Below the pieces are notes generated by a model. That model did no database searches. It had not been told where the DNA came from and worked only from the letters and a program-made list of their open reading frames with translations. Of a stretch of DNA of 64,000 bases, positions 12,742 to 64,000 are shown one piece after another; the stretch's first letter is position 1; every line of letters begins with the position of its first letter. The stretch covers positions 358 to 64,357 of the forward strand of contig JBCKVB010000003.1 of assembly GCA_038924245.1 (NCBI GenBank), in the 5' to 3' direction. The translations under genes and the position numbers were made by a program. The DNA comes from Gammaproteobacteria bacterium. GTDB lineage: Bacteria; Pseudomonadota; Gammaproteobacteria; SURF-13.

Positions 12742-12963
12742 GGCATTGTTAAATTAGTATAGGAACCCCCGCTGTGTTGTCATTTCGCCGCTCCTGCGCA
12801 TCGCTATGCCTGCGGCACTTGTGCATCCCTGTACATCGAAGCGTAGCGAGAAATCTGTTACGAATAGCCTTCACTGTAATCAGGGCGTTACAAGATTTCT
12901 CCCGTGGGTCGAAATGACATGTGCGGGATTGATAAGAAATTACTATACTAAATTAACAATGCC
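12742..12963. mobile_element. MITE-like element, 222 bp, 21-bp terminal inverted repeats GGCATTGTTAA(A/T)TTAGTATAG
   Basis: Left end GGCATTGTTAAATTAGTATAG (12742-12762). Right end CTATACTAAATTAACAATGCC (12943-12963) is its reverse complement with 1 mismatch. Inside is a second inverted repeat, TGTCATTTCG/CGAAATGACA, and a diverged copy of the CAGGGATG hairpin repeat. No coding capacity. Confidence 0.7.
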
Positions 12964-12985
12964 GAAATTTTGTAGCCATCCGATT

Positions 12986-19332: not shown

Positions 19333-19409
19333 AGCGCATTCCTCTATTTTTCGCAGGGCAGATAATGGAAACTCATAGTACACGGCAACAACAATGCCAA
19401 GAAAAATAA

Positions 19410-19490
19410 GGCATTGTTAATTTAGTATAGCTTCCAGGCCCCCATTCCATTTAAGCATGAGAAGCATCACCGAATTAAATTAACAATGCC
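19410..19490. repeat. 81-bp element with the same terminal repeat as the 12742-12963 MITE, immediately upstream of gltB
   Basis: GGCATTGTTAATTTAGTATAG (19410-19430) and AATTAAATTAACAATGCC (19473-19490) match over 16 bp when inverted. An extra AACAATGCC half-site at 19390-19398 can pair with 19410-19418. Confidence 0.65.
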
Positions 19491-29998: not shown

Positions 29999-30634
29999 AT
30001 GGCCACGCACGAACAACGCCAGCGCCGCATGATCGCCCTGGAGGCGGCGCGGCTCATCGCCGAACACGGCATGAGCGACTACCATGCCGCGAAATGCAAG
30101 GCCGCGCGGCGCCTCGGCGTGCATGAGCCGCTGCCGCGTAATGAAGAGGTGGAGCAGGCGCTGGGAGATTATCAGCGCTTGTTTCAGGCCGGCACGCAGC
30201 CGCGCCATTTGCGGAAGCTGCGCGAGGCGGCGCAGCAGGCGATGCGCTTGCTGGAGCGCTTTGAGCCGCGCCTCACGGGCTCCGTGCTGTCCGGCACCGC
30301 GCACCGGCATTCCGACGTGAATCTGCACCTGTTCGCCGGCACGCCGGAAGAAGTGGGCTGGTTTCTGGACAGCCAGGCCATTCCGTTTCAACTGGCGCAG
30401 CGCCACTTCAGCTTTACCTCCGCTGAACCGGCCAGGACCTGCCCGGTATACCGTTTTGTCGCGGGCGATGTGACCCTGGACCTCGCGGTGTTCCCTCTGC
30501 TCGGCCTGCGCCAGGCGCCGCTCGGTCCCGTGGACGGGCGGCCCATGCCGCGCATCGCGCTCGCGGCGCTGCGTAAGCTGGCTGAGCCGCGAAGCGGAGA
30601 AGGCCAGCACAAGGAGGTGCTGGCGGGTGTTTGA
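29999..30634 (+). CDS. conserved hypothetical protein, possibly a minimal nucleotidyltransferase fold
   Basis: 211-aa ORF starting 4 nt after the mrcA stop. LTGSVLSGTAHRHSDVNLHLF resembles the hG[GS]x9-13Dh[DE]h NTase motif, but with N replacing the second acidic residue. Confidence 0.6.
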   Translation: MATHEQRQRRMIALEAARLIAEHGMSDYHAAKCKAARRLGVHEPLPRNEEVEQALGDYQRLFQAGTQPRHLRKLREAAQQAMRLLERFEPRLTGSVLSGTAHRHSDVNLHLFAGTPEEVGWFLDSQAIPFQLAQRHFSFTSAEPARTCPVYRFVAGDVTLDLAVFPLLGLRQAPLGPVDGRPMPRIALAALRKLAEPRSGEGQHKEVLAGV

Positions 30635-30719
30635 GGTTGAGATGTTATTGCGCCAGGGATGGCATCACGGCTGTTTATCGAGGCCAGGTAGCTTATAAGT
30701 TGGAGTAATGCGTCATTCC

Positions 30720-30857
30720 GACGTACAGGGATGTACTAGTGTCGCGGGAGGCAGGACGCCGGGAGCGACCGACGTACAGGGAAGAGCGCCAGCGAAGGGT
30801 TCAGGGATAGCGAAGGGTTCTGCTAGTGTCGCGGGAGGCAGGATGCCGGGAGCGGCC
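30720..30857 (+). repeat. Two tandem copies (51 bp + 87 bp) of the modular GACGYACAGGGA…GGGAGCGRCC repeat
   Basis: Copy 1 (30720-30770): GACGTACAGGGATGTACTAGTGTCGCGGGAGGCAGGACGCCGGGAGCGACC. Copy 2 (30771-30857) has the same ends plus AGAGCGCCAGCGAAGGGT and TCAGGGATAGCGAAGGGT modules. The ORF 30708..30926 is just this repeat read in frame. Confidence 0.85.
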
Positions 30858-31084
30858 GACACACGCTGTGGCGTCATTTTTTTGACACATCTGTATGCAC
30901 AACGGCCTGTCTTATACACATTCTAAGATCGGTGTCCAGAGAAGGTTCGCGCAGGGTGCTCGAGAAAGCCGCAGCCATACAGTTAACTAAATGATATAAT
31001 TAACTATTTTTATGACAAGATCAAATTATGACCATTCTGTTACAGGCTCCACTGGGATGGGCTTTTGCGCCCTTTTACCCCATG

Positions 31085-31119
31085 TCATCCACAAAGTTAT
31101 CCACAGATTTTGTGGATAA
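31085..31119. promoter_or_regulatory. cluster of three DnaA boxes upstream of priA
   Basis: TCATCCACA (31085-31093, 1 mismatch), TTATCCACA (31097-31105, perfect) and TGTGGATAA (31111-31119, perfect, inverted). An AT-rich tract lies at 30961-31040. Confidence 0.6.
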
Positions 31120-31217
31120 CAAAATTCCTAAACCGGGACAGAAGCTTAGCGGATGGAGATGATACCGCTTCTGCTGTAGCCCCCCGCCCCCCGCATCTTT
31201 GCTGACATCCTGCTCCC

Positions 31218-33290
31218 ATGCCCCGTGATTATCTGGTGTTGCGCGTCGCGGTACCCGTGCCACTGCCGCGCTGGTTTGATTATTTAGCCCCGCGCGTCTG
31301 TCCACACCCGCCGCAACCGGGCATGCGCGTCAAGGTGCCGTTCGGACGCAGCGAGGCAGTGGGATTGATAATGGAGCTCGCCAACCAGAGCGCGCTGGGC
31401 GAGGGGCGCTTGAAACATGCCTTGAGTCTGCTGGATGAACAGCCGTTGCTGGATGAATCACTGCTCGGCCTGTTGCGCTGGGCGAGCGCTTATTATCACC
31501 ACCCCATCGGCGAAGTGGTGGCCGCCGCCTTGCCCGGACACTTGCGCGCCGGACGCGCCGCCTCGCTGGCTGATCCCGGCGACGCACAGGGAAGAGCGCC
31601 AGCGAAGGGTTCTGCTAGTGTCGCGGGAGGCAGGATGCCGGGAGCGACCGCGCTGGATCAGGGGCTGCTTGCGGCCGCGCCGCCCGTGCTGAACGGCGCG
31701 CAGCAACAAGCCGTCACCGAGGTGGCGGAGGCGCAAGGCTTTCAGGTGTTGCTCTTGCAAGGCGTCACCGGCAGCGGCAAGACCGAGGTGTATCTGCGCC
31801 TGATTGAGCGGGTGGTGGCGCGCGGCGCGCAAGTGCTGGTGCTGGCGCCGGAGATCGGCCTCACCCCGCAACTGCTGGCGCGTTTTCAGCAGCGTTTCGC
31901 CGTGCCGATAGCGGTTCTGCATTCCGCCCTGGGCGAGCGCGAGCGCGCACAGAACTGGCTCGCCGCGCGCGCGGGCCGCGCGCCCATCGTGCTCGGCACG
32001 CGCTCCGCCGTGTTCACGCCCCTTGCGCGGCCTGGCCTCATCATCATAGACGAGGAGCACGACGCCTCGTTCAAACAGCAGGACGGGTTCCGCTATCACG
32101 CGCGCGACGTCGCCATCCTGCGCGCGCAACGCGCCGGCATCCCGGTGCTGCTCGGCTCCGCCACCCCTTCCTTCGAATCGCTGTACAACGTGCGCCAGGG
32201 GCGCTACCGCGCGCTGAGTCTGCCGGAGCGCGCCGGCGGCGCGGCGCATCCGGAGATGCGGCTGCTGGACGTGCGCCATCAAGTGTTGCAGGGCGGCATG
32301 TCGGCGCCGCTGCTCGACGCGGTGGGCGAGCACCTGGCGCGCGGTGAACAGGTGCTGCTGTTTTTAAACCGGCGCGGTTTCGCGCCGCTGCTCATGTGCC
32401 ACGCCTGCGGCTGGAGCGCGCAGTGCGAACGCTGCGACGCGCGCATGGTGCTGTATCTCGATCAGGCGCGCGCTTTGCACTGCCAGCACTGCGGCGCGCA
32501 ACGCGCGCGCCCGGAGCAGTGCGCGGCGTGCCAGAGCGCCGAGCTGCGCGTGCTGGGTTACGGCACCGAGCGCGTCGAGCAAACCCTGCGCGAGCACTTT
32601 CCCGCCGCCGAGGTGCTGCGCATAGACCGCGACAGCACGCGGCGCAAGGGCGCGCTCGATGATCTGCTCGCGCGCGCGCAACAGGGTGGCGCGCAAATCC
32701 TCATCGGCACCCAGATGCTGGCCAAAGGCCATCACCTGCCCAATGTCACCCTGGCCGGGATACTCAACCTGGATCAAGGTTTGTTCGGGGCGGATTTCCG
32801 CGCCGCCGAGCGCATGGCGCAGCTCATCGTGCAGGTGGCGGGGCGCGCCGGGCGCGCGCACAAGCCAGGGCGGGTGCTGATCCAGACCCATCACCCCACG
32901 CACCCCTTGCTCACCGCGCTCATCCGTGACGGCTATGCCGCCTTTGCCGAGGCGGCGCTCACCGAGCGAAAACACACGCACTTGCCGCCTTACAGCAGTC
33001 TGGCGTTGCTGCGCGCCGAGGCGGTGAACCGTAGCGCGCCGCTGGAATTCTTGCGCGCGGCGCAGGCCGCCGCCGAACCTCTGGCCGGCGCCGCCGTACA
33101 GATACTGGGGCCGGTCAGCGCTCCCATGGAGCGGCGCGCCGGGCGTTACCGCGCGCAACTGCTGGTGCAAGCCGCGCGCCGTAATGAATTGCAGCGTCTG
33201 CTCGATGCCTGGATGCCGCTGCTGGAGACGATCAAGACCGCGCGCAAGGTACGCTGGTCGCTGGATGTGGATCCGGTGGAGATACTTTGA
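31218..33290 (+). CDS. priA: primosomal replication-restart helicase PriA (carries a 69-bp in-frame repeat insert)
   Basis: 690 aa with Walker A GVTGSGKTEVY, DEEHD, and the Cys-rich zinc region CHACGWSAQCERCDARMVLY…CQHCG…CAACQS. Confidence 0.95.
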   Translation: MPRDYLVLRVAVPVPLPRWFDYLAPRVCPHPPQPGMRVKVPFGRSEAVGLIMELANQSALGEGRLKHALSLLDEQPLLDESLLGLLRWASAYYHHPIGEVVAAALPGHLRAGRAASLADPGDAQGRAPAKGSASVAGGRMPGATALDQGLLAAAPPVLNGAQQQAVTEVAEAQGFQVLLLQGVTGSGKTEVYLRLIERVVARGAQVLVLAPEIGLTPQLLARFQQRFAVPIAVLHSALGERERAQNWLAARAGRAPIVLGTRSAVFTPLARPGLIIIDEEHDASFKQQDGFRYHARDVAILRAQRAGIPVLLGSATPSFESLYNVRQGRYRALSLPERAGGAAHPEMRLLDVRHQVLQGGMSAPLLDAVGEHLARGEQVLLFLNRRGFAPLLMCHACGWSAQCERCDARMVLYLDQARALHCQHCGAQRARPEQCAACQSAELRVLGYGTERVEQTLREHFPAAEVLRIDRDSTRRKGALDDLLARAQQGGAQILIGTQMLAKGHHLPNVTLAGILNLDQGLFGADFRAAERMAQLIVQVAGRAGRAHKPGRVLIQTHHPTHPLLTALIRDGYAAFAEAALTERKHTHLPPYSSLALLRAEAVNRSAPLEFLRAAQAAAEPLAGAAVQILGPVSAPMERRAGRYRAQLLVQAARRNELQRLLDAWMPLLETIKTARKVRWSLDVDPVEIL
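31581..31649 (+). repeat. 69-bp copy of the modular repeat inside priA (translated as DAQGRAPAKGSASVAGGRMPGAT)
   Basis: GACGCACAGGGAAGAGCGCCAGCGAAGGGTTCTGCTAGTGTCGCGGGAGGCAGGATGCCGGGAGCGACC. Nearly identical to the intergenic copy at 30771-30857 minus one 18-bp module. Confidence 0.9.
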
Positions 33291-33293
33291 CGG

Positions 33294-33380
33294 CAGAGAA
33301 AAGATACAAGAGAAAAGATACAAGGGAAGAGGTAAAATAACCGCTGATCCTTTCCTCTTTTCTCTTGCCTCTTTTCTCTG
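33294..33380. repeat. long imperfect polypurine/polypyrimidine hairpin (AGAGAAAAGATACAAG repeats) between priA and argS
   Basis: Left arm CAGAGAAAAGATACAAGAGAAAAGATACAAGGGAAGAGG. Right arm CCTTTCCTCTTTTCTCTTGCCTCTTTTCTCTG. A related single arm lies at 56539-56578. Confidence 0.7.
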
Positions 33381-35682: not shown

Positions 35683-35689
35683 CGTCCGT

Positions 35690-36631
35690 TCAGGACGTGA
35701 GCGTTTCCGCCGTGCGCCGGCGCTCCAGCAGGATGCGTTTGAATGCTTCGGGGTCTTTGGTGTGGGTGATTTCGCCCCGGCGCGGGAAGTGCAGATCATG
35801 CAGGCGCGAGAGCCAGAAACGCAGCGCGGCGGCGCGCAGCATCACCGGCCAGGCCGCGTGTTCCGCCGCGTCGAACGGACGTTCGCGCGCGTAGGCGTCA
35901 AGCAGCCGGCGCTTGCGGTGCTCGTCCAGCGCGCCGCGCGCGTCGCCGCACCAGTCGTTCACCGTGACCGCCACGTCGTAGAGAAAGGCGTCGTTGCAGG
36001 CGTAATAAAAATCTATGATCCCGGTCAGCTCGCTGTCCACGAACAGCGCGTTGTCGCGGAACAGGTCGGCGTGGATCACCCCTTGCGGCAGTCCCGTCCA
36101 CGGGTTTTGTTTTTGATAGTTCAACTCTTCCCGCAGCAGCGCGGCATCCCCAGGATTTAACTTCGGCAAAACCTTGCGCGCGGTGGCCTTGCGCCAGGCC
36201 GCGCCGCGGTCGTTGTCGCGCCGCCCGCTGAAGGAGATGCCCACCCGGTGCAGGCGCCCCAGTGCTTTGCCCAACGCGGCGCAGTGCGCGGCGCCGGGTT
36301 CGCGCACGTCGCTCCCCTTAAGGCGGCGCACCAGCGCCGCGGGCTTGCCGCACAGCGTCGTCAAATAACGCCCCTGCCTGTCGGCGAGCGGGTGCGCGCT
36401 CGGCACGCCGTGCTCGGCCAGAAACGCCATCAGGTCGAGGAAATAGGGCAGGTGCTGGTAAGGCGTGGACTCAAACAGGGTGAGTACGAATTCACCCTCG
36501 CTGGTGGTGACGAAATAATTGGTGTTTTCGATACCGGCGCTCACGCCGGAATAAGTCACCAACTCGCCCAGCGCATAGCTGAGCAAAAATTCCCTGAGTT
36601 GCGGCGGCTCGACGCGGGTGTAGACGGACAT
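35690..36631 (-). CDS. thrB: homoserine kinase, APH-like (Pseudomonas-type ThrB)
   Basis: 313 aa. MSVYTRVEPPQLREFLLSYALGELVTYSGVSAGIENTNYFVTT… and the catalytic HADLFRDN. Confidence 0.9.
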   Translation of the reverse strand: MSVYTRVEPPQLREFLLSYALGELVTYSGVSAGIENTNYFVTTSEGEFVLTLFESTPYQHLPYFLDLMAFLAEHGVPSAHPLADRQGRYLTTLCGKPAALVRRLKGSDVREPGAAHCAALGKALGRLHRVGISFSGRRDNDRGAAWRKATARKVLPKLNPGDAALLREELNYQKQNPWTGLPQGVIHADLFRDNALFVDSELTGIIDFYYACNDAFLYDVAVTVNDWCGDARGALDEHRKRRLLDAYARERPFDAAEHAAWPVMLRAAALRFWLSRLHDLHFPRRGEITHTKDPEAFKRILLERRRTAETLTS

Positions 36632-37845: not shown

Positions 37846-37874
37846 AATGTATGACCTGTCCTTGTGAGCCTGGC

Positions 37875-40613
37875 ATGAAACCCTCTTTGTTACTGGTGGA
37901 CGGCAGTTCTTATCTGTATCGCGCCTTCCACGCGCTGCCGCCGCTCAACAATTCCCAGGGCGAGCCGACCGGCGCGGTGTACGGCGTGCTCAACATGCTG
38001 CGCAAGCTCAGCGCCGACACTCAGCCAAAATACATCGCGCTGGTGTTCGACGCCAAGGGCAAGACCTTCCGCGACGAGCTGTTCGAGCGCTACAAGGCGC
38101 AACGCCCCCCCATGCCGGATGACCTGGTGCGCCAGATCGAGCCGCTGTACGCCATTATACAAGCAATGGGTCTGCCATTAATAAGCCTCTCAGGCGTGGA
38201 GGCCGACGACGTGATCGGCACGCTCGCCATCCAGGCGGCGGCGCAGGGCATGGACACGCTCATCTCCACCGGCGACAAGGACTTCGCGCAACTGGTGAAC
38301 GGCCACATCACGCTCATCAACACCATGACCAATACGGTATTGGACCGGCAAGGCGTGATGGAAAAATTCGGCATCACGCCGGAACAGATCATCGCCTATC
38401 TCACCCTGGCGGGCGACGCGGCGGACAACGTGCCCGGCGTGCCCAAGGTGGGGCCGGTCACCGCGGTCAAGTGGCTTAACCAATACGGCACGCTGGCCAA
38501 CATCGTGGCGCACGCGCAAGAGATACCCGGCAAGGTGGGCGAGAATCTGCGCGCCGCCATCCCGCTACTGCCGCTGTACCAGCAAGTGCTCACCATCAAG
38601 TGCGACGTCGCGCTGCCGTGTACGCTGCTGGATTTGCAGCCGCGCGCGCCGGATGTCGCGGCGCTACGCCAGCTTTATCAACGCATGGAGTTCAAACGCT
38701 GGCTGGCCGATCTGGGTAAAGATATTAGCCCGGCGCAGAACAATACCCCCGCACCCTTCGCTTGCGCTCTTCCCTATAAGGGAGAGGGTAGGGGTGAGGG
38801 TGGAAAGATCGCCGGTACACAGGCACCTAACCCCCCCCCAGCGGCGCCGGTTACCTTCGAGACGCCAGGTTCCATCGAGGAACTGCAAAACTGGGCCGCG
38901 GCGCAGCGCGCTGCCACAACACTCACCCTGGCGCTGGAAACCTCTGACGCACAGGGACGTGCTAATGTCGCGGGAGGCAGGACGCCGGGAGCGACCGGCG
39001 CGGACTACATGCGCGACGAACTGACCGGGCTGGCATTGCAGACGGGAGAAGGCGCGGCGCTTTACCTTGCATTCACCGATGTCCTGCCGCGTGAGGCGGC
39101 GCTCGGTGCCTTGCGTGCGCTGTTACAGGATGCCGCCGTTGAAAAACGTGGGCACGATCTCAAGTTCGCGCTGAATGTGCTGGCGCGCTATGGCGTTGAC
39201 CTGCAAGGGCTGCGCTTTGACGTGATGCTGGAGTCCTATGTGCTGGACAGCACCGCCACGCGGCACGATCTTGCCGCGCTGTGTGAAAAATACCTGGGCG
39301 CGAAGGCGACCGACGCTTGCGCACAACGCCTTTCCGCGCTGCAACGGTTGCACGAACTGCTCTGGCCGCAGTTGCAAAAAATCGCGCCCTTAAAAAAATT
39401 ATTCACCGAGATTGAAATGCCGCTCATTCCGGTGCTGGCGCGCATCGAGCGCGCCGGAGTGGGCGTGGATGTGCGTCTTCTAAACGCGCACAGCGAACAA
39501 CTCGCCGCGCGCCTCAAGCAACTAGAAGATCAGGCGTATCAAATGGCCGGGCAGATGTTCAACTTGAGCTCGCCGCAGCAACTACAGGGCATCCTCTACG
39601 ACAAGCTCGGCTTGCCGGTGCTGAAAAAAACGCCCAAGGGCCAGCCCTCCACGGCGGAGGAGGTGTTGCGGGAACTGGCGCTCGATTATCCGCTGCCCAA
39701 GCTGATTCTGGAGCAGCGCACGCTGAGCAAGCTCAAGTCTACTTACACCGATCGCCTGCCGGAACAAGTCAACTCCGTCACTGGGCGCGTGCACACGCGC
39801 TATCATCAGGCCGTCACCGCCACCGGACGCCTGTCGTCCAGCGACCCCAATCTGCAAAACATCCCGGTGCGCGGCGAGGAGGGCAAGCGTGTGCGCGCGG
39901 CGTTCATCGCGCCCGCCGGTTATCAATTACTCTCCGCCGATTATTCGCAGATCGAACTGCGCATCATGGCGCACCTCTCCGGCGACGCGCGCCTGAAGCA
40001 CGCCTTCGCGGGCAATCAGGACATCCACAAGGCCACCGCCGCCGAGGTGTTCGGCGTCAAACTCGAACAGGTGAGCGCGGAGCAGCGGCGTGCCGCCAAG
40101 GTCATCAACTTCGGATTGATCTACGGCATGTCGGCGTTTGGCTTGGCCAAACAACTCGGCGTGCCGCGCGAGGCGGCGCAGCAGTACATGACACTGTATT
40201 TCGCGCGCTACCCCGGCGTGCAGGCGTTCATGGAACGCACGCGCGCACAGGCGCGCCAGCAAGGTTACGTGGAAACCTTATACGGCCGGCGCCTGTATCT
40301 GCCTGAGATCAACAGCCGCAACGGACAACTGCGCCAATACGCCGAGCGCACCGCCATCAACGCGCCCATGCAGGGCAGCGCCGCCGACATCATCAAGCTC
40401 GCCATGCTGCGTATTGACGCCTGGCTGCAACAAAACAAGTTCAACGCGCGCATGATCATGCAAGTGCATGACGAATTGGTGTTCGAGGTGGCGGAACAAG
40501 ACTGTGGGGCGTTGGCCGACGCGGTGCGCCGCCTGATGACCGGCATCGAAGGCCTGTCCGTCCCCTTAAGCGTGGATATCGGCATAGGCCGCAACTGGGC
40601 GGTGGCGCATTAA
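37875..40613 (+). CDS. polA: DNA polymerase I (carries two different in-frame repeat inserts; 3'-5' exonuclease motifs look degenerate)
   Basis: MKPSLLLVDGSSYLYRAFHALPPL… (5' nuclease domain). Polymerase motifs A (LLSADYSQIELRIMAH), B (RRAAKVINFGLIYG) and C (QVHDELVFE). The alternative ORF-track start is 37851. Confidence 0.95.
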   Translation: MKPSLLLVDGSSYLYRAFHALPPLNNSQGEPTGAVYGVLNMLRKLSADTQPKYIALVFDAKGKTFRDELFERYKAQRPPMPDDLVRQIEPLYAIIQAMGLPLISLSGVEADDVIGTLAIQAAAQGMDTLISTGDKDFAQLVNGHITLINTMTNTVLDRQGVMEKFGITPEQIIAYLTLAGDAADNVPGVPKVGPVTAVKWLNQYGTLANIVAHAQEIPGKVGENLRAAIPLLPLYQQVLTIKCDVALPCTLLDLQPRAPDVAALRQLYQRMEFKRWLADLGKDISPAQNNTPAPFACALPYKGEGRGEGGKIAGTQAPNPPPAAPVTFETPGSIEELQNWAAAQRAATTLTLALETSDAQGRANVAGGRTPGATGADYMRDELTGLALQTGEGAALYLAFTDVLPREAALGALRALLQDAAVEKRGHDLKFALNVLARYGVDLQGLRFDVMLESYVLDSTATRHDLAALCEKYLGAKATDACAQRLSALQRLHELLWPQLQKIAPLKKLFTEIEMPLIPVLARIERAGVGVDVRLLNAHSEQLAARLKQLEDQAYQMAGQMFNLSSPQQLQGILYDKLGLPVLKKTPKGQPSTAEEVLRELALDYPLPKLILEQRTLSKLKSTYTDRLPEQVNSVTGRVHTRYHQAVTATGRLSSSDPNLQNIPVRGEEGKRVRAAFIAPAGYQLLSADYSQIELRIMAHLSGDARLKHAFAGNQDIHKATAAEVFGVKLEQVSAEQRRAAKVINFGLIYGMSAFGLAKQLGVPREAAQQYMTLYFARYPGVQAFMERTRAQARQQGYVETLYGRRLYLPEINSRNGQLRQYAERTAINAPMQGSAADIIKLAMLRIDAWLQQNKFNARMIMQVHDELVFEVAEQDCGALADAVRRLMTGIEGLSVPLSVDIGIGRNWAVAH
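38767..38803 (+). repeat. G-rich REP-type element (CTCTTCCCTATAAGGGAGAGGGTAGGGGTGAGGGTGG) inside the polA interdomain linker
   Basis: Hairpin followed by a GGGT-rich tail. Translated in frame as …LPYKGEGRGEGG…. A similar hairpin-plus-GGGTTCGGGGT element lies in the gltB-gltD spacer (14470-14510). Confidence 0.7.
38946..38996 (+). repeat. 51-bp copy of the modular repeat inside the polA exonuclease domain (translated DAQGRANVAGGRTPGAT)
   Basis: GACGCACAGGGACGTGCTAATGTCGCGGGAGGCAGGACGCCGGGAGCGACC. Same orientation and reading frame as the priA copy. Confidence 0.9.
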
Positions 40614-56538: not shown

Positions 56539-56578
56539 GTTTCTTTTCTCTTGTATCTTTTAACTTTTCTCTGCCTCT
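56539..56578. repeat. single-arm copy (reverse orientation) of the AGAGAAAAGATACAAG polypurine repeat
   Basis: GTTTCTTTTCTCTTGTATCTTTTAACTTTTCTCTGCCTCTC is the complement of the left arm at 33294-33332. It lies between convergent DUF3579 and dksA. Confidence 0.65.
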
Positions 56579-59434: not shown

Positions 59435-59485
59435 GGTCGCTCCCGGCGTCCTGCCTCCCGCGACACTAGTGCATCCCTGCACGTC
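59435..59485 (-). repeat. 51-bp copy of the modular repeat at the 5' end of the kinase gene
   Basis: The minus-strand sequence GACGTGCAGGGATGCACTAGTGTCGCGGGAGGCAGGACGCCGGGAGCGACC has a core identical to copy 30720-30770. Confidence 0.9.
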
Positions 59486-59500
59486 GCAAGTAGCAAGTAC

Positions 59501-59890
59501 TCAGGGGAGGCTCACCGGCGCGGGCGGTGTCCAAGCCGGGTTACGCTGCTCGGCGATGACCGTGGTATAAATCCCGCCGCGCACGTAGAACTCGGCGGTT
59601 AAACGCATGAAACGCGGCGCGCAGGCTTTAACCAGATCGTCCAGGATTTGATTGGTCACCGCTTCGTGAAACGCCCCTTCGTTGCGGTAACTCCACATGT
59701 ATAATTTCAGGGATTTCAACTCGATACAGCGCGCATCGGGCACGTATTCGATATGCAGCGTGGCGAAGTCCGGCTGGCCGGTCTTGGGGCACAAGCAAGT
59801 AAACTCCGGAACGCGCATACGGATGGTATAATCGCGTTCGGGCGTCGGATTGGCGAAGATTTCAAGTTGTTTGCTGGGCTGGGCGGGCAT
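59501..59890 (-). CDS. queF: NADPH-dependent 7-cyano-7-deazaguanine reductase (type I QueF)
   Basis: [15 protein letters not shown]…[23 protein letters not shown]…[21 protein letters not shown] is the QueF signature. The upstream extension of the track ORF runs through tandem repeats and is rejected. Confidence 0.92.
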
Positions 59891-59915
59891 AGGGCGGACT
59901 CGCGGCTGATATTTT

Positions 59916-60033
59916 GCACATAATAACGCAACTGAATTTTGCCCATAATAACGCAACTGGCTTAGGCATAACAATGCAACTGGCTTAGGCATAACAATGC
60001 AACTGGCTTAGGATAATAACGCAACTGACTTAG
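59916..60033. repeat. five tandem copies of a 22-25-bp repeat (consensus GCATAAYAAYGCAACTGGCTTAG) in the queF/smc divergent spacer
   Basis: Units at 59916-59940, 59941-59965, 59966-59988, 59989-60011 and 60012-60033. Units 3 and 4 are identical. Confidence 0.9.
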
Positions 60034-63575: not shown

Positions 63576-64000
63576 ATGGAACTGCGCGTAATGTTAATTC
63601 TGGCCGGCGCGTTGCTCGTTCTCGGCTTGTATCTGTGGGAAAGATACCGGCGCGCCTCCGCAACACGGCGCGCCTCGGTCCGGCAAACGCCTGTTGTGGC
63701 GGAACAGCAGCCCGGCCAGTTCCCGCCCGCCAAGCCGCTGACGCCTCCGCCTCTGCCGGGAGCGCCGCGGCAGGTCATCGCACTGCACGTCATTAGCCGG
63801 GAAAATTTACCCGGGCCGGACATCATCGCCGCCCTGAACGCCGCGGATATGCAGTTGGGGCCGATGCGGATATTCCACCGTTGGCCGCCTGCGCCGCACG
63901 AGGCAGGAGGCCGGGAGCGACCGCCGGAGTCCGGGTCACCCCCCCAGCCTGTATTCAGCCTGGCCAATATGGTTGAGCCAGGCCATATACCCGCCGAACA
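63576..64000 (+). CDS. zipA: cell division protein ZipA (N-terminal about 141 codons; continues beyond the window)
   Basis: Not in the ORF track because it has no stop in the window. My translation is MELRVMLILAGALLVLGLYLWERYRR… (TM), a P/Q-rich linker, then …VIALHVISRENLPGPDIIAALNAADMQLGPMRIFHRW…PVFSLANMVEPG, which matches the ZipA FtsZ-binding domain. smc-zipA order is conserved. Confidence 0.85.
   Translation, partial: MELRVMLILAGALLVLGLYLWERYRRASATRRASVRQTPVVAEQQPGQFPPAKPLTPPPLPGAPRQVIALHVISRENLPGPDIIAALNAADMQLGPMRIFHRWPPAPHEAGGRERPPESGSPPQPVFSLANMVEPGHIPAE

Follow-up and report, generated by a model that had tools for sequence, protein, structure and literature searches.

A 69-nucleotide repeat inserted in frame in priA of a gammaproteobacterium belongs to a family dispersed among Gammaproteobacteria

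How does the gene of a replication-restart helicase come to contain 23 codons whose DNA recurs in an intergenic region 800 bp upstream? We addressed this question in a 64,000-nucleotide (nt) stretch from a Gammaproteobacteria bacterium (GenBank assembly GCA_038924245.1, contig JBCKVB010000003.1, positions 358 to 64,357), hereafter the window, in which the following gene carries the segment:

31218..33290, + strand, priA (primosomal protein N'), 690 residues, intact, host gene of the insertion (open reading frame [ORF] listing, Pfam)

Positions 31581-31649 comprise 69 nt, or 23 in-frame codons of priA, and encode PriA residues 122-144. The translation, DAQGRAPAKGSASVAGGRMPGAT in the context ...LADPG-DAQGRAPAKGSASVAGGRMPGAT-ALDQG..., is the one given in an earlier note on this DNA, which had described the segment as a repeat copy lying in frame in the PriA linker. 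The ORF listing, Pfam, an AlphaFold2 model and a shuffle control all confirmed that description. The note had also called the segment identical, nucleotide for nucleotide, to the intergenic copy at 30771-30857. The match holds but not its exactness, as 67 of the 69 positions agree when one 18-nt gap is set aside; the two substitutions are T/C at position 5 and G/A near the 3' end. A 33-nt core of the repeat had five matches in the window at three or fewer mismatches and none in 100 shuffles, and a repeat search placed the window copies in one family. The description of PriA as essential needs softening, the protein being important but not strictly essential in Escherichia coli. We consider it likely that the priA segment is a selfish, miniature, non-autonomous element resembling REP (repetitive extragenic palindromic) sequences and the Rickettsia palindromic elements (RPEs), which was inserted in the gene and is translated and tolerated there.

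The repeat is not a local feature of priA. A covariance model built from its unit found seven copies in the window, with E-values from 8e-17 to 3e-6. They are listed here with the convincing part of the copy in the zipA-like ORF and a solo module:

30719..30770, + strand, basic 51-nt unit, intergenic, upstream of priA, first of a head-to-tail pair (80.9 bits, E = 7.8e-17)
30771..30857, + strand, 87-nt unit, intergenic, the 69-nt form plus a second 18-nt unit, second of the tandem pair
31580..31649, + strand, 69-nt subfamily copy in priA, frame F0 (57 bits, E = 2.5e-11)
38945..38996, + strand, basic 51-nt unit in polA, in frame, read as DAQGRANVAGGRTPGAT, PolA residues 366-382 (covariance model)
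59435..59486, - strand, basic 51-nt unit between a queF-like ORF (59501..59992) and the ORF of an FGGY-type sugar kinase (80.8 bits)
12786..12838, - strand, diverged intergenic copy (35 bits, E = 2.9e-6)
63862-63922, + strand, covariance match in a zipA-like ORF (34.7 bits; convincing in its 3' half only)
63895..63922, + strand, partial copy, the hairpin-2 half, in the zipA-like ORF, frame F1, read as ...HEAGGRERP..., in a loop longer than that of E. coli ZipA
38744..38778, - strand, solo reverse copy of the GAAGAGCGnnAGCGAAGGG module in the inter-domain linker of polA, read as ...PFACALPY..., conserved in the close strain L001

The copy at 59435..59486 is probably located just upstream of the true kinase start. 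The dispersal of the family, its second in-frame copy in polA and its presence in many Gammaproteobacteria all go beyond the earlier note.

To which side does the segment owe its origin, the gene or the repeat? We collected 8000 PriA homologues. The nearest, P0001 from the metagenome-assembled genome (MAG) GCA_038924425.1, was 98% identical in the alignment and had an insert of 45 residues at the same site. The insert was absent from P0002, P0003 and P0004 (81-84% identity) and from every more distant homologue, which thus show the 23-residue gap that had been expected of relatives. Since the PriA proteins of relatives lack the insert while its DNA is found in intergenic regions and unrelated genes, the repeat entered priA and was not derived from it, and the opposite course, in which the intergenic copies would stem from priA, does not agree with these findings. 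The insertion would have occurred after this lineage and relatives with about 80% PriA identity had parted.

The same distribution bears on a purely local origin, in which gene conversion or template switching took the priA segment from the intergenic repeats 800 bp upstream, or those repeats from priA, without any mobile element. The two copies are 97% identical, share one orientation and lie 810 nt apart, and the orthologous copies of strain L001 look remodelled by exchange between copies. However, the unit is also present at 12.8, 38.9, 59.4 and 63.9 kb in the window and in dozens of other genomes, its 69-nt form is present as a unit in nine other MAGs, the priA and intergenic sites have no flanking homology to prime conversion, and derivation from priA is excluded by the homologues that lack the residues. 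A local origin is already largely refuted by the distribution, and we regard it as very improbable. As for the assembly itself, short repeats in metagenome bins may be misassembled, by which a repeat could have been collapsed or misjoined into priA. Yet the reading frame is kept, the flanks are perfectly collinear with priA, the same site is occupied in the independent assembly GCA_038924425.1, and in-frame copies are present in the isolates Nitrosomonas eutropha Nm57, Balneatrix alpica, Sedimenticola hydrogenitrophicus and Ferrimonas gelatinilytica, which leaves an artefact of assembly or sequencing with a negligible chance.

Where in PriA does the insert lie? Pfam assigned PriA_3primeBD to residues 9-106 and DEAD to residues 161-322, in addition to Zn_ribbon_PriA, Helicase_C and PriA_C, and placed the start of the DEAD/ResIII helicase lobe at residues 158-161. 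In the AlphaFold2 model (18 homologues, mean predicted local distance difference test [pLDDT] score of 79), residues 118-152 have a pLDDT below 50 and no secondary structure. The insert is therefore predicted by the model to occupy a disordered linker that joins the 3' DNA-binding domain to the helicase core (lobe 1), the location that the earlier note had proposed to examine by structural modelling. The PriA proteins of the window and its nearest relatives (about 613-690 residues) do not have the winged-helix segment of about 70 residues. This segment is present in homologues of 730-740 residues, where it separates the 3' DNA-binding domain from the helicase core, whereas the clade of the window, typically of about 665 residues, has a short variable linker instead in the alignment. 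Because the winged-helix segment is missing from this clade, the insert is placed in a remnant of the inter-domain linker. If confirmed, this would mark the PriA linker of the winged-helix-less clade as structurally permissive. Other small repeats were observed in the same linker. The priA linker of L117 (10160-10250) contains different repeat-like segments, GGTGAGGCGTCAGGCGTGAGGCG and a reverse copy of the AGAGCGAAGCGAGGGG module, and that of P0037 reads GEVLGVRS...GEALGVRR, so the PriA linker of relatives appears to gather small repeats again and again.

Three DnaA-box-like 9-mers were also observed about 100 nt upstream of the priA start (31085-31121):

31085-31093, DnaA-box-like 9-mer, TCATCCACA
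31097-31105, DnaA-box-like 9-mer, TTATCCACA
31111-31119, DnaA-box-like 9-mer, inverted TTATCCACA

All three are perfect TTATCCACA in strain L001. Judged from its motifs, the cluster may be a DnaA-regulated promoter or a titration site.

What, then, is the unit that was inserted? An alignment of 94 distinct copies, drawn both from the window and from other genomes, shows a basic unit of exactly 51 nt, in which a single T links a 21-nt hairpin to one of 29 nt. The consensus of hairpin 1 is YGAYGTACA-GGGA-NGTACWAR and that of hairpin 2, nearly invariant, is GTCGC-GGGA-GGC-AGGAY-GCC-GGGA-GCGAC. Both halves formed hairpins on folding, with z-scores of -2.3 to -2.4 for basic units. Hairpin 2 was required by our search pattern, whereas hairpin 1 lay outside every pattern used, and it is hairpin 1 that shows clear compensatory change. 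For its closing pair 2-22 we counted 66 units with CG, 25 with UA and 3 with UG, and none of the 94 has it unpaired; pair 7-18 is UA in 53 and CG in 37, and another inner pair switches from A-U to G-C or C-G (62, 12 and 7). No shuffle out of 500 matched the covariation score of hairpin 1, and shifting its 3' partners by 1-3 columns lowered the proportion of paired cells from 90% to 18-43%. The first base of the unit pairs with position 22 in 94 of 94 units. Units start with CGAC, TGAC, CGAT or CGCC, and the GTAG/CGTC tag is absent. Terminal inverted repeats are absent as well, the 5' end (YGAYG) and the 3' end (GCGAC) not being reverse complements. Rfam had no family at the repeats, with chance-level matches only, both at gathering thresholds over the whole window and in E-value mode over 30650-31700.

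Copy length is tightly constrained. All 132 copies measured 51, 66 or 69 nt, each a multiple of three, and size variants of the unit range from 66 to 87 nt. In the 69-nt subfamily the loop of hairpin 1 carries GAAGAGCGnnAGCGAAGGGTTC, and units from nine other MAGs have the 69-nt form at the same position. The parts of the priA copy are as follows:

31593..31612, + strand, hairpin-1 loop extension AGAGCGCCAGCGAAGGGTTC, which defines the 69-nt subfamily and includes an 18-nt unit of varying tandem number
31620..31648, + strand, hairpin 2, GTCGC-GGGA-GGC-AGGAT-GCC-GGGA-GCGAC (folding, alignment, pair counts)

The 18-nt unit is present once in priA of the window, twice in priA of L001 and twice at 30771-30857, a change in copy number that fits the pattern expected from slippage. 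We had considered the 18-nt unit, the module of the earlier note, as an independent insertion in priA; this view was dropped for a 69-nt subfamily with a slipping internal unit.

The polA copy provided the filled and empty sites. At the insert site, polA of the relative L118 reads LALETS|GADYM and has exactly 51 nt (17 codons) fewer, with no duplication. Nested copies likewise have no duplicated bases, so a target-site duplication is absent. Folding, pair counts and the polA comparison together describe an element with subterminal hairpins at both ends that is inserted without duplication. The PolA insert lies at the start (first strand) of the 3'-5' exonuclease-like domain, for which the Pfam match begins at residue 383. 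In the polA gene of the window (37851-40613), this domain (residues ~360-500) was observed to be without the usual catalytic aspartates, with ALETS for DTETD, DLKFA for NLKYD and no evident YxxxD aspartate. From these motifs, the domain is probably proofreading-inactive, like those of Taq and Bst polymerases, and since the catalytic aspartates are replaced there, the insertion site is probably permissive. The inter-domain linker of PolA also contains the motif GEGRGEGG (38780-38810), found in L001 and in the more distant L118 (7290-7320), the rest of the linker being unalignable.

Do the copies stay as they are once inserted? The close strain L001 is 96-97% identical to the window over about 14 kb of DNA, and all three copies that they share differ. 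The intergenic pair of 51 and 87 nt in the window corresponds to a single 69-nt unit in L001. The priA insert is 69 nt (23 residues) in the window and 135 nt (45 residues) in L001, the surplus consisting of a further copy of the 18-nt unit and a 48-nt unit, nested, from a related family. In polA, the insert measures 51 nt in the window against 87 nt in L001. Each of these insertions and deletions has a length divisible by three. Since no clean deletion accounts for the change in polA, exchange between copies or replacement is likely. In other genomes, a forward unit is often nested in hairpin 2 of a reverse unit, at several positions and always as an insert of exactly 51 nt, the removal of which restores the consensus of the interrupted copy. 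The related small-repeat family (...GGAGGTAGARYCGCGTCGGGAACAGCGRYCG...) was observed as 48 nt at L001 5846-5893, in the hairpin-2 loop of the priA copy, where it adds TTPGMEEVESRREQRS to PriA of L001, and again at L093 ~1100-1140.

Is residence in genes exceptional for this family? We called a copy intragenic when at least 240 nt of open frame extended on both sides, and 70 of 132 copies qualified. Stop-free frames were used by 67 of the 70 (F0, 36; R0, 13; R1, 13; F1, 5); the remainder were one F2 copy without a stop codon and two copies with one (one F2, one R1). The unit is free of stop codons in four of its six frames. Open-frame placement was found for 58.6% of the elements and for 59.0% of random 51-nt windows from the same loci and, as the two values are nearly equal, the family is not depleted from coding DNA. 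Pfam confirmed that host ORFs are real for HsdM, ValS (three copies in one gene), IleS, MetE, class I ribonucleotide reductase and RecG, and, for copies in reverse-orientation frames, for an AddB-like nuclease and a RecB/AddA-like helicase. Splicing, a small intron or ribosomal bypass was rejected, as all lengths are multiples of three and stops occur in two of the 70 intragenic copies; the frame and length statistics indicate that the copies are read through. The valyl-tRNA synthetase gene of a Sedimenticola MAG (L052, 2129-5215) was observed to contain three in-frame units with a partial tandem copy after the first.

Such frame use raises the question of whether the peptide itself is selected. 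Gly, Ala, Ser, Thr and Pro abound in the F0 peptide, and the F0 excess suggests either that harmless peptides are selected or that insertion is biased in phase. Taken further, the peptide could have been exapted as a flexible spacer, in PriA replacing the lost winged-helix domain, with the repeat acting as a supplier of linkers. The DVQGCTSVAGGRTPGAT-like F0 reading in 36 of 67 copies against about 17 expected would agree with such a role, as would the location of the PriA, RecG and ribonucleotide reductase copies between domains and the small repeat-derived segments that the PriA linkers of L117 and P0037 also hold. The linker of the PriA clade nevertheless follows no pattern in its length, which ranges between zero and 45 additional residues, and the two close strains are 22 residues apart. 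Real genes also hold copies in other frames and in reverse orientation, and several copies lie within catalytic domains (HsdM N6_Mtase, ValS, MetE). We therefore find exaptation at the protein level improbable.

How widely is the family distributed? Scanning reference genomes by the hairpin 2 pattern with a variable loop, we found at least 115 loci. Uncultured hosts among the matches listed were Acidiferrobacterales, Sulfurifustaceae, Sulfuricaulis, Thiohalomonadales, Thiohalophilus, Ectothiorhodospiraceae, Chromatiales, Sedimenticola, a Solemya symbiont, Lysobacterales, Porticoccaceae, Endobugula and Amphritea, and the isolates were N. eutropha Nm57, B. alpica, S. hydrogenitrophicus, F. gelatinilytica and a Pseudomonas strain. 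Also among them were a few matches in non-proteobacterial bins, which may be binning contamination. The high-copy genomes among these matches were all MAGs, none of them complete, and the isolates and Pseudomonas/Stutzerimonas had one locus each among the matches listed. The copies examined in isolates and in Pseudomonas/Stutzerimonas sit in hsdM-like genes of type I restriction-modification (R-M) systems, often at the same position across genera. Copies in hsdM-like genes were observed in Nitrosomonas, Balneatrix, Amphritea, Pseudomonas, Stutzerimonas, Sedimenticola and Endobugula (L034, L051, L097, L053, L100, L099, L113, L011 and L076). Because the hsdM codon position is often the same across genera, this suggests that R-M genes passed on horizontally also carry the unit along as a passenger.

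The left flanks of the copies contain a weak motif, as position -2 is T in 45% of them and position -4 is C in 46%. A preference for C directly 3' of the unit (108 of 110) was rejected as evidence since this base belonged to the search pattern. Elements at orthologous sites were 92-100% identical where their flanks were 51-94% identical; as the pattern fixed 30 of the 51 positions, this conservation of element over flank was not relied on. Claims on the conservation of hairpin 2 are biased by the exact-pattern scan in the same manner.

Could the repeat instead be a functional cis-acting structure kept by selection, either as mRNA hairpins that pause ribosomes or shield from RNase or as a DNA site for a host protein? 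RNA-level roles have been proposed for REPs (Di Nocera et al., 2013, BMC Genomics 14:522, PMC3733652). The compensatory changes in hairpin 1 with a closing pair unbroken in 94 units, the almost invariant hairpin 2 across orders and the occupied orthologous sites in diverged genomes (MetE in L038/L108, HsdM in L053/L100) would agree with such a function. Covariation would, however, be equally expected if mobility needs the hairpin, and the invariance of hairpin 2 was imposed by the search pattern. Moreover, the copies are scattered over unrelated positions in unrelated genes, point either way and form tandem or nested arrays, their placement relative to coding DNA is indistinguishable from random, and close relatives do without the priA and polA copies and have no compensating feature. 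We consider a selected cis-acting function unlikely.

Several observations weigh against the reading of the priA segment as a selfish element that is inserted, translated and tolerated. Some copies share their site between genomes whose flanks are only 76-84% identical, and hairpin 2 is nearly the same across several orders. Both could mean a selected function, though hairpin 2 was required by the search pattern. The use of F0 is far from uniform and points to peptide selection or phase bias. A tblastn search with three RAYT/IS200-type proteins (RAYT, REP-associated tyrosine transposase; PMC3733652 supplement) over 0.89 Mb of DNA, the window and 120 loci, found no match to a transposase. No filled and empty alleles were seen within a single species, the exact target site and timing being deduced from diverged relatives. 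Finally, that the insert peptide is made at all is something we infer.

With these points in mind, we propose the following course of events for a selfish element in priA. Its survival there would be explained by a length that is a multiple of three, by four stop-free frames and by its landing in a disordered linker already devoid of the winged-helix domain. The element would be transcribed and translated with priA, giving a Gly/Ala/Ser/Pro-rich loop of 23 residues that is probably neutral for PriA. After insertion, the 18-nt unit would slip, copies would be exchanged or replaced, and small units would nest inside. Because copies keep changing in this manner, two strains that are 96-97% identical carry versions of 23 and 45 residues. 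The family appears to be mobile, as judged from its sequences. It might move as hairpin-forming single-stranded DNA through a trans-acting enzyme of the HUH/Y1 type (RAYT or IS200/IS605-like), a route that we suggest only tentatively. The features that resemble elements handled by HUH/Y1 enzymes are boundaries that coincide with the hairpin feet, the lack of inverted repeats and target duplication, and the maintained structure of hairpin 1.

Other repeats and rearrangements were observed in the window and in L001. An extra palindromic element of about 146 nt with terminal inverted repeats GAACCTGTTCATGATCTCG...CGAGATCATAAACAGGTTC lies at L001 9953-10100, between a SPOR-domain gene and an APH-family gene, and is missing at window 35688-35690; it is an insertion resembling a classical MITE (miniature inverted-repeat transposable element), from a different family. 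Upstream of the intergenic repeats, an ORF of 211 residues (29999-30634) had no Pfam match; in L001 (4573-4902) it has lost about 270 nt in frame (window 30103-30372) and measures 109 residues. Two copies of the small repeat CAGAGAAAAGATACAAGAGAAAAGATACAAGG, inverted relative to one another, lie between priA and argS (33292-33380), and the repeat recurs at 56543-56575. AT-rich inverted repeats of 37 nt (CTATACTAAATTAACAATGCC...), 84% complementary, at 12943-12979 and 19394-19430 bracket about 6.4 kb and may be the ends of a mobile island; a third similar AT-rich stretch (~12745-12770) adjoins the diverged repeat copy at 12.8 kb.

What would such a family mean for its hosts? It is possible, although we put it forward with reserve, that the 51-nt unit and its relatives with lengths in multiples of three make up a class of their own, so far undescribed, of gammaproteobacterial mobile DNA that dwells in genes and is spread between orders, partly through R-M genes. 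Its design would suit coding sequence through a fixed length that three divides, four frames without stops and a benign peptide in the frame used most. If so, these elements would not be excluded from genes and would create fast-changing peptide loops in enzymes of replication, repair and translation, and a new or unrecognised kind of transposition enzyme would be implied. In Rickettsia and in scattered REP cases, in-frame copies are exceptions within mostly intergenic families, whereas the 51-nt family is as common in genes as chance would have it. If confirmed, the family would offer a natural experiment on the sites at which essential enzymes tolerate 17-45 extra residues and identify one origin of the rapid differences in length that separate near-identical strains. 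It would also call for caution in the annotation and alignment-based phylogeny of these marker genes, and define the target of an enzyme that moves a 51-nt unit without duplication.

How does the family compare with known systems? A full-text literature search with the core DNA (both strands) and the encoded peptides gave no match, and a search of the literature on 51-bp repeats or 17-amino-acid insertions returned nothing relevant. In a database of 5.8 billion proteins, a 51-residue concatenate of three peptide variants had 37 candidates, none significant, with a word index unsuited to short motifs. Intragenic REPs with the GTAG/CGTC tag have been described, some of them wholly inside ORFs and adding 7-80 residues, notably in genes for DNA synthesis and repair (uvrA/B/D, polA, recBCD, dnaE) and for tRNA synthetases (PMC3733652). 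In the same study, CGTC REPs had no identified transposase and REP families differed even between species of one genus; the sequence and peptide of the 51-nt family are absent from its text and tables (PMC3733652). Our family shares with REPs the nature of small dispersed hairpin repeats and the classes of host genes (PriA, PolA, RecG, RecB/AddB-like, ValS, IleS). Unlike REPs, it has no GTAG/CGTC tag and starts with YGAY, and it is made of two different hairpins at a fixed length rather than a single palindrome of 20-40 nt or an inverted dimer. REPs are also mostly extragenic and their families vary even within a genus, while the 51-nt family is not depleted from coding DNA and recurs across several orders. 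Its arrays are mostly head-to-tail or nested, in contrast to the inverted doublets of REPINs (REP doublets forming hairpins).

Miniature derivatives of IS200/IS605, or palindrome-associated transposable elements (PATEs), and the REPs and REPINs mobilised by RAYTs resemble our unit in their end hairpins, in lacking terminal inverted repeats and duplication, and in conserving structure over sequence in one hairpin. By analogy, these features fit recognition as single-stranded DNA. The 51-nt unit is much smaller than known PATEs. Its target motif is weak, and no cognate Y1 transposase was found in the 0.89 Mb of loci. The QMITEs of Coxiella burnetii are MITEs that extend or interrupt ORFs (PMC5896051) and, like our family, non-autonomous repeats of a gammaproteobacterium able to add peptide segments to proteins. 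MITEs have terminal inverted repeats and target-site duplications, whereas the 51-nt unit has neither. Small dispersed repeats of cyanobacteria (Elhai et al., 2008, cited in PMC3116915), of about 20-30 nt, reportedly insert into each other and occasionally into genes. They belong to another phylum and differ in sequence, and here it is a defined two-hairpin unit that nests, with length classes in multiples of three. The classic in-frame case is the one named in the earlier note. RPE-1 and its relatives (Ogata et al., 2000) are said to be selfish palindromic repeats lying in frame in Rickettsia genes, essential ones included. RPEs are translated and thought to occupy surface loops, and RPE-1, of 100-150 bp, is confined to Rickettsia. 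The analogy is supported by in-frame copies that keep the frame in priA, polA and many hosts elsewhere, as expected of a selfish repeat in protein genes. Our unit of 51 nt (69 nt in priA) is set apart from RPE-1 by its size, its hosts and its self-nesting, a distinction made on size and host range and not on sequence. In-frame repeats are thus already known as a phenomenon. This family appears to be a variant of it not yet described, since it is compatible with coding sequence, is not depleted from genes and is found broadly among Gammaproteobacteria.

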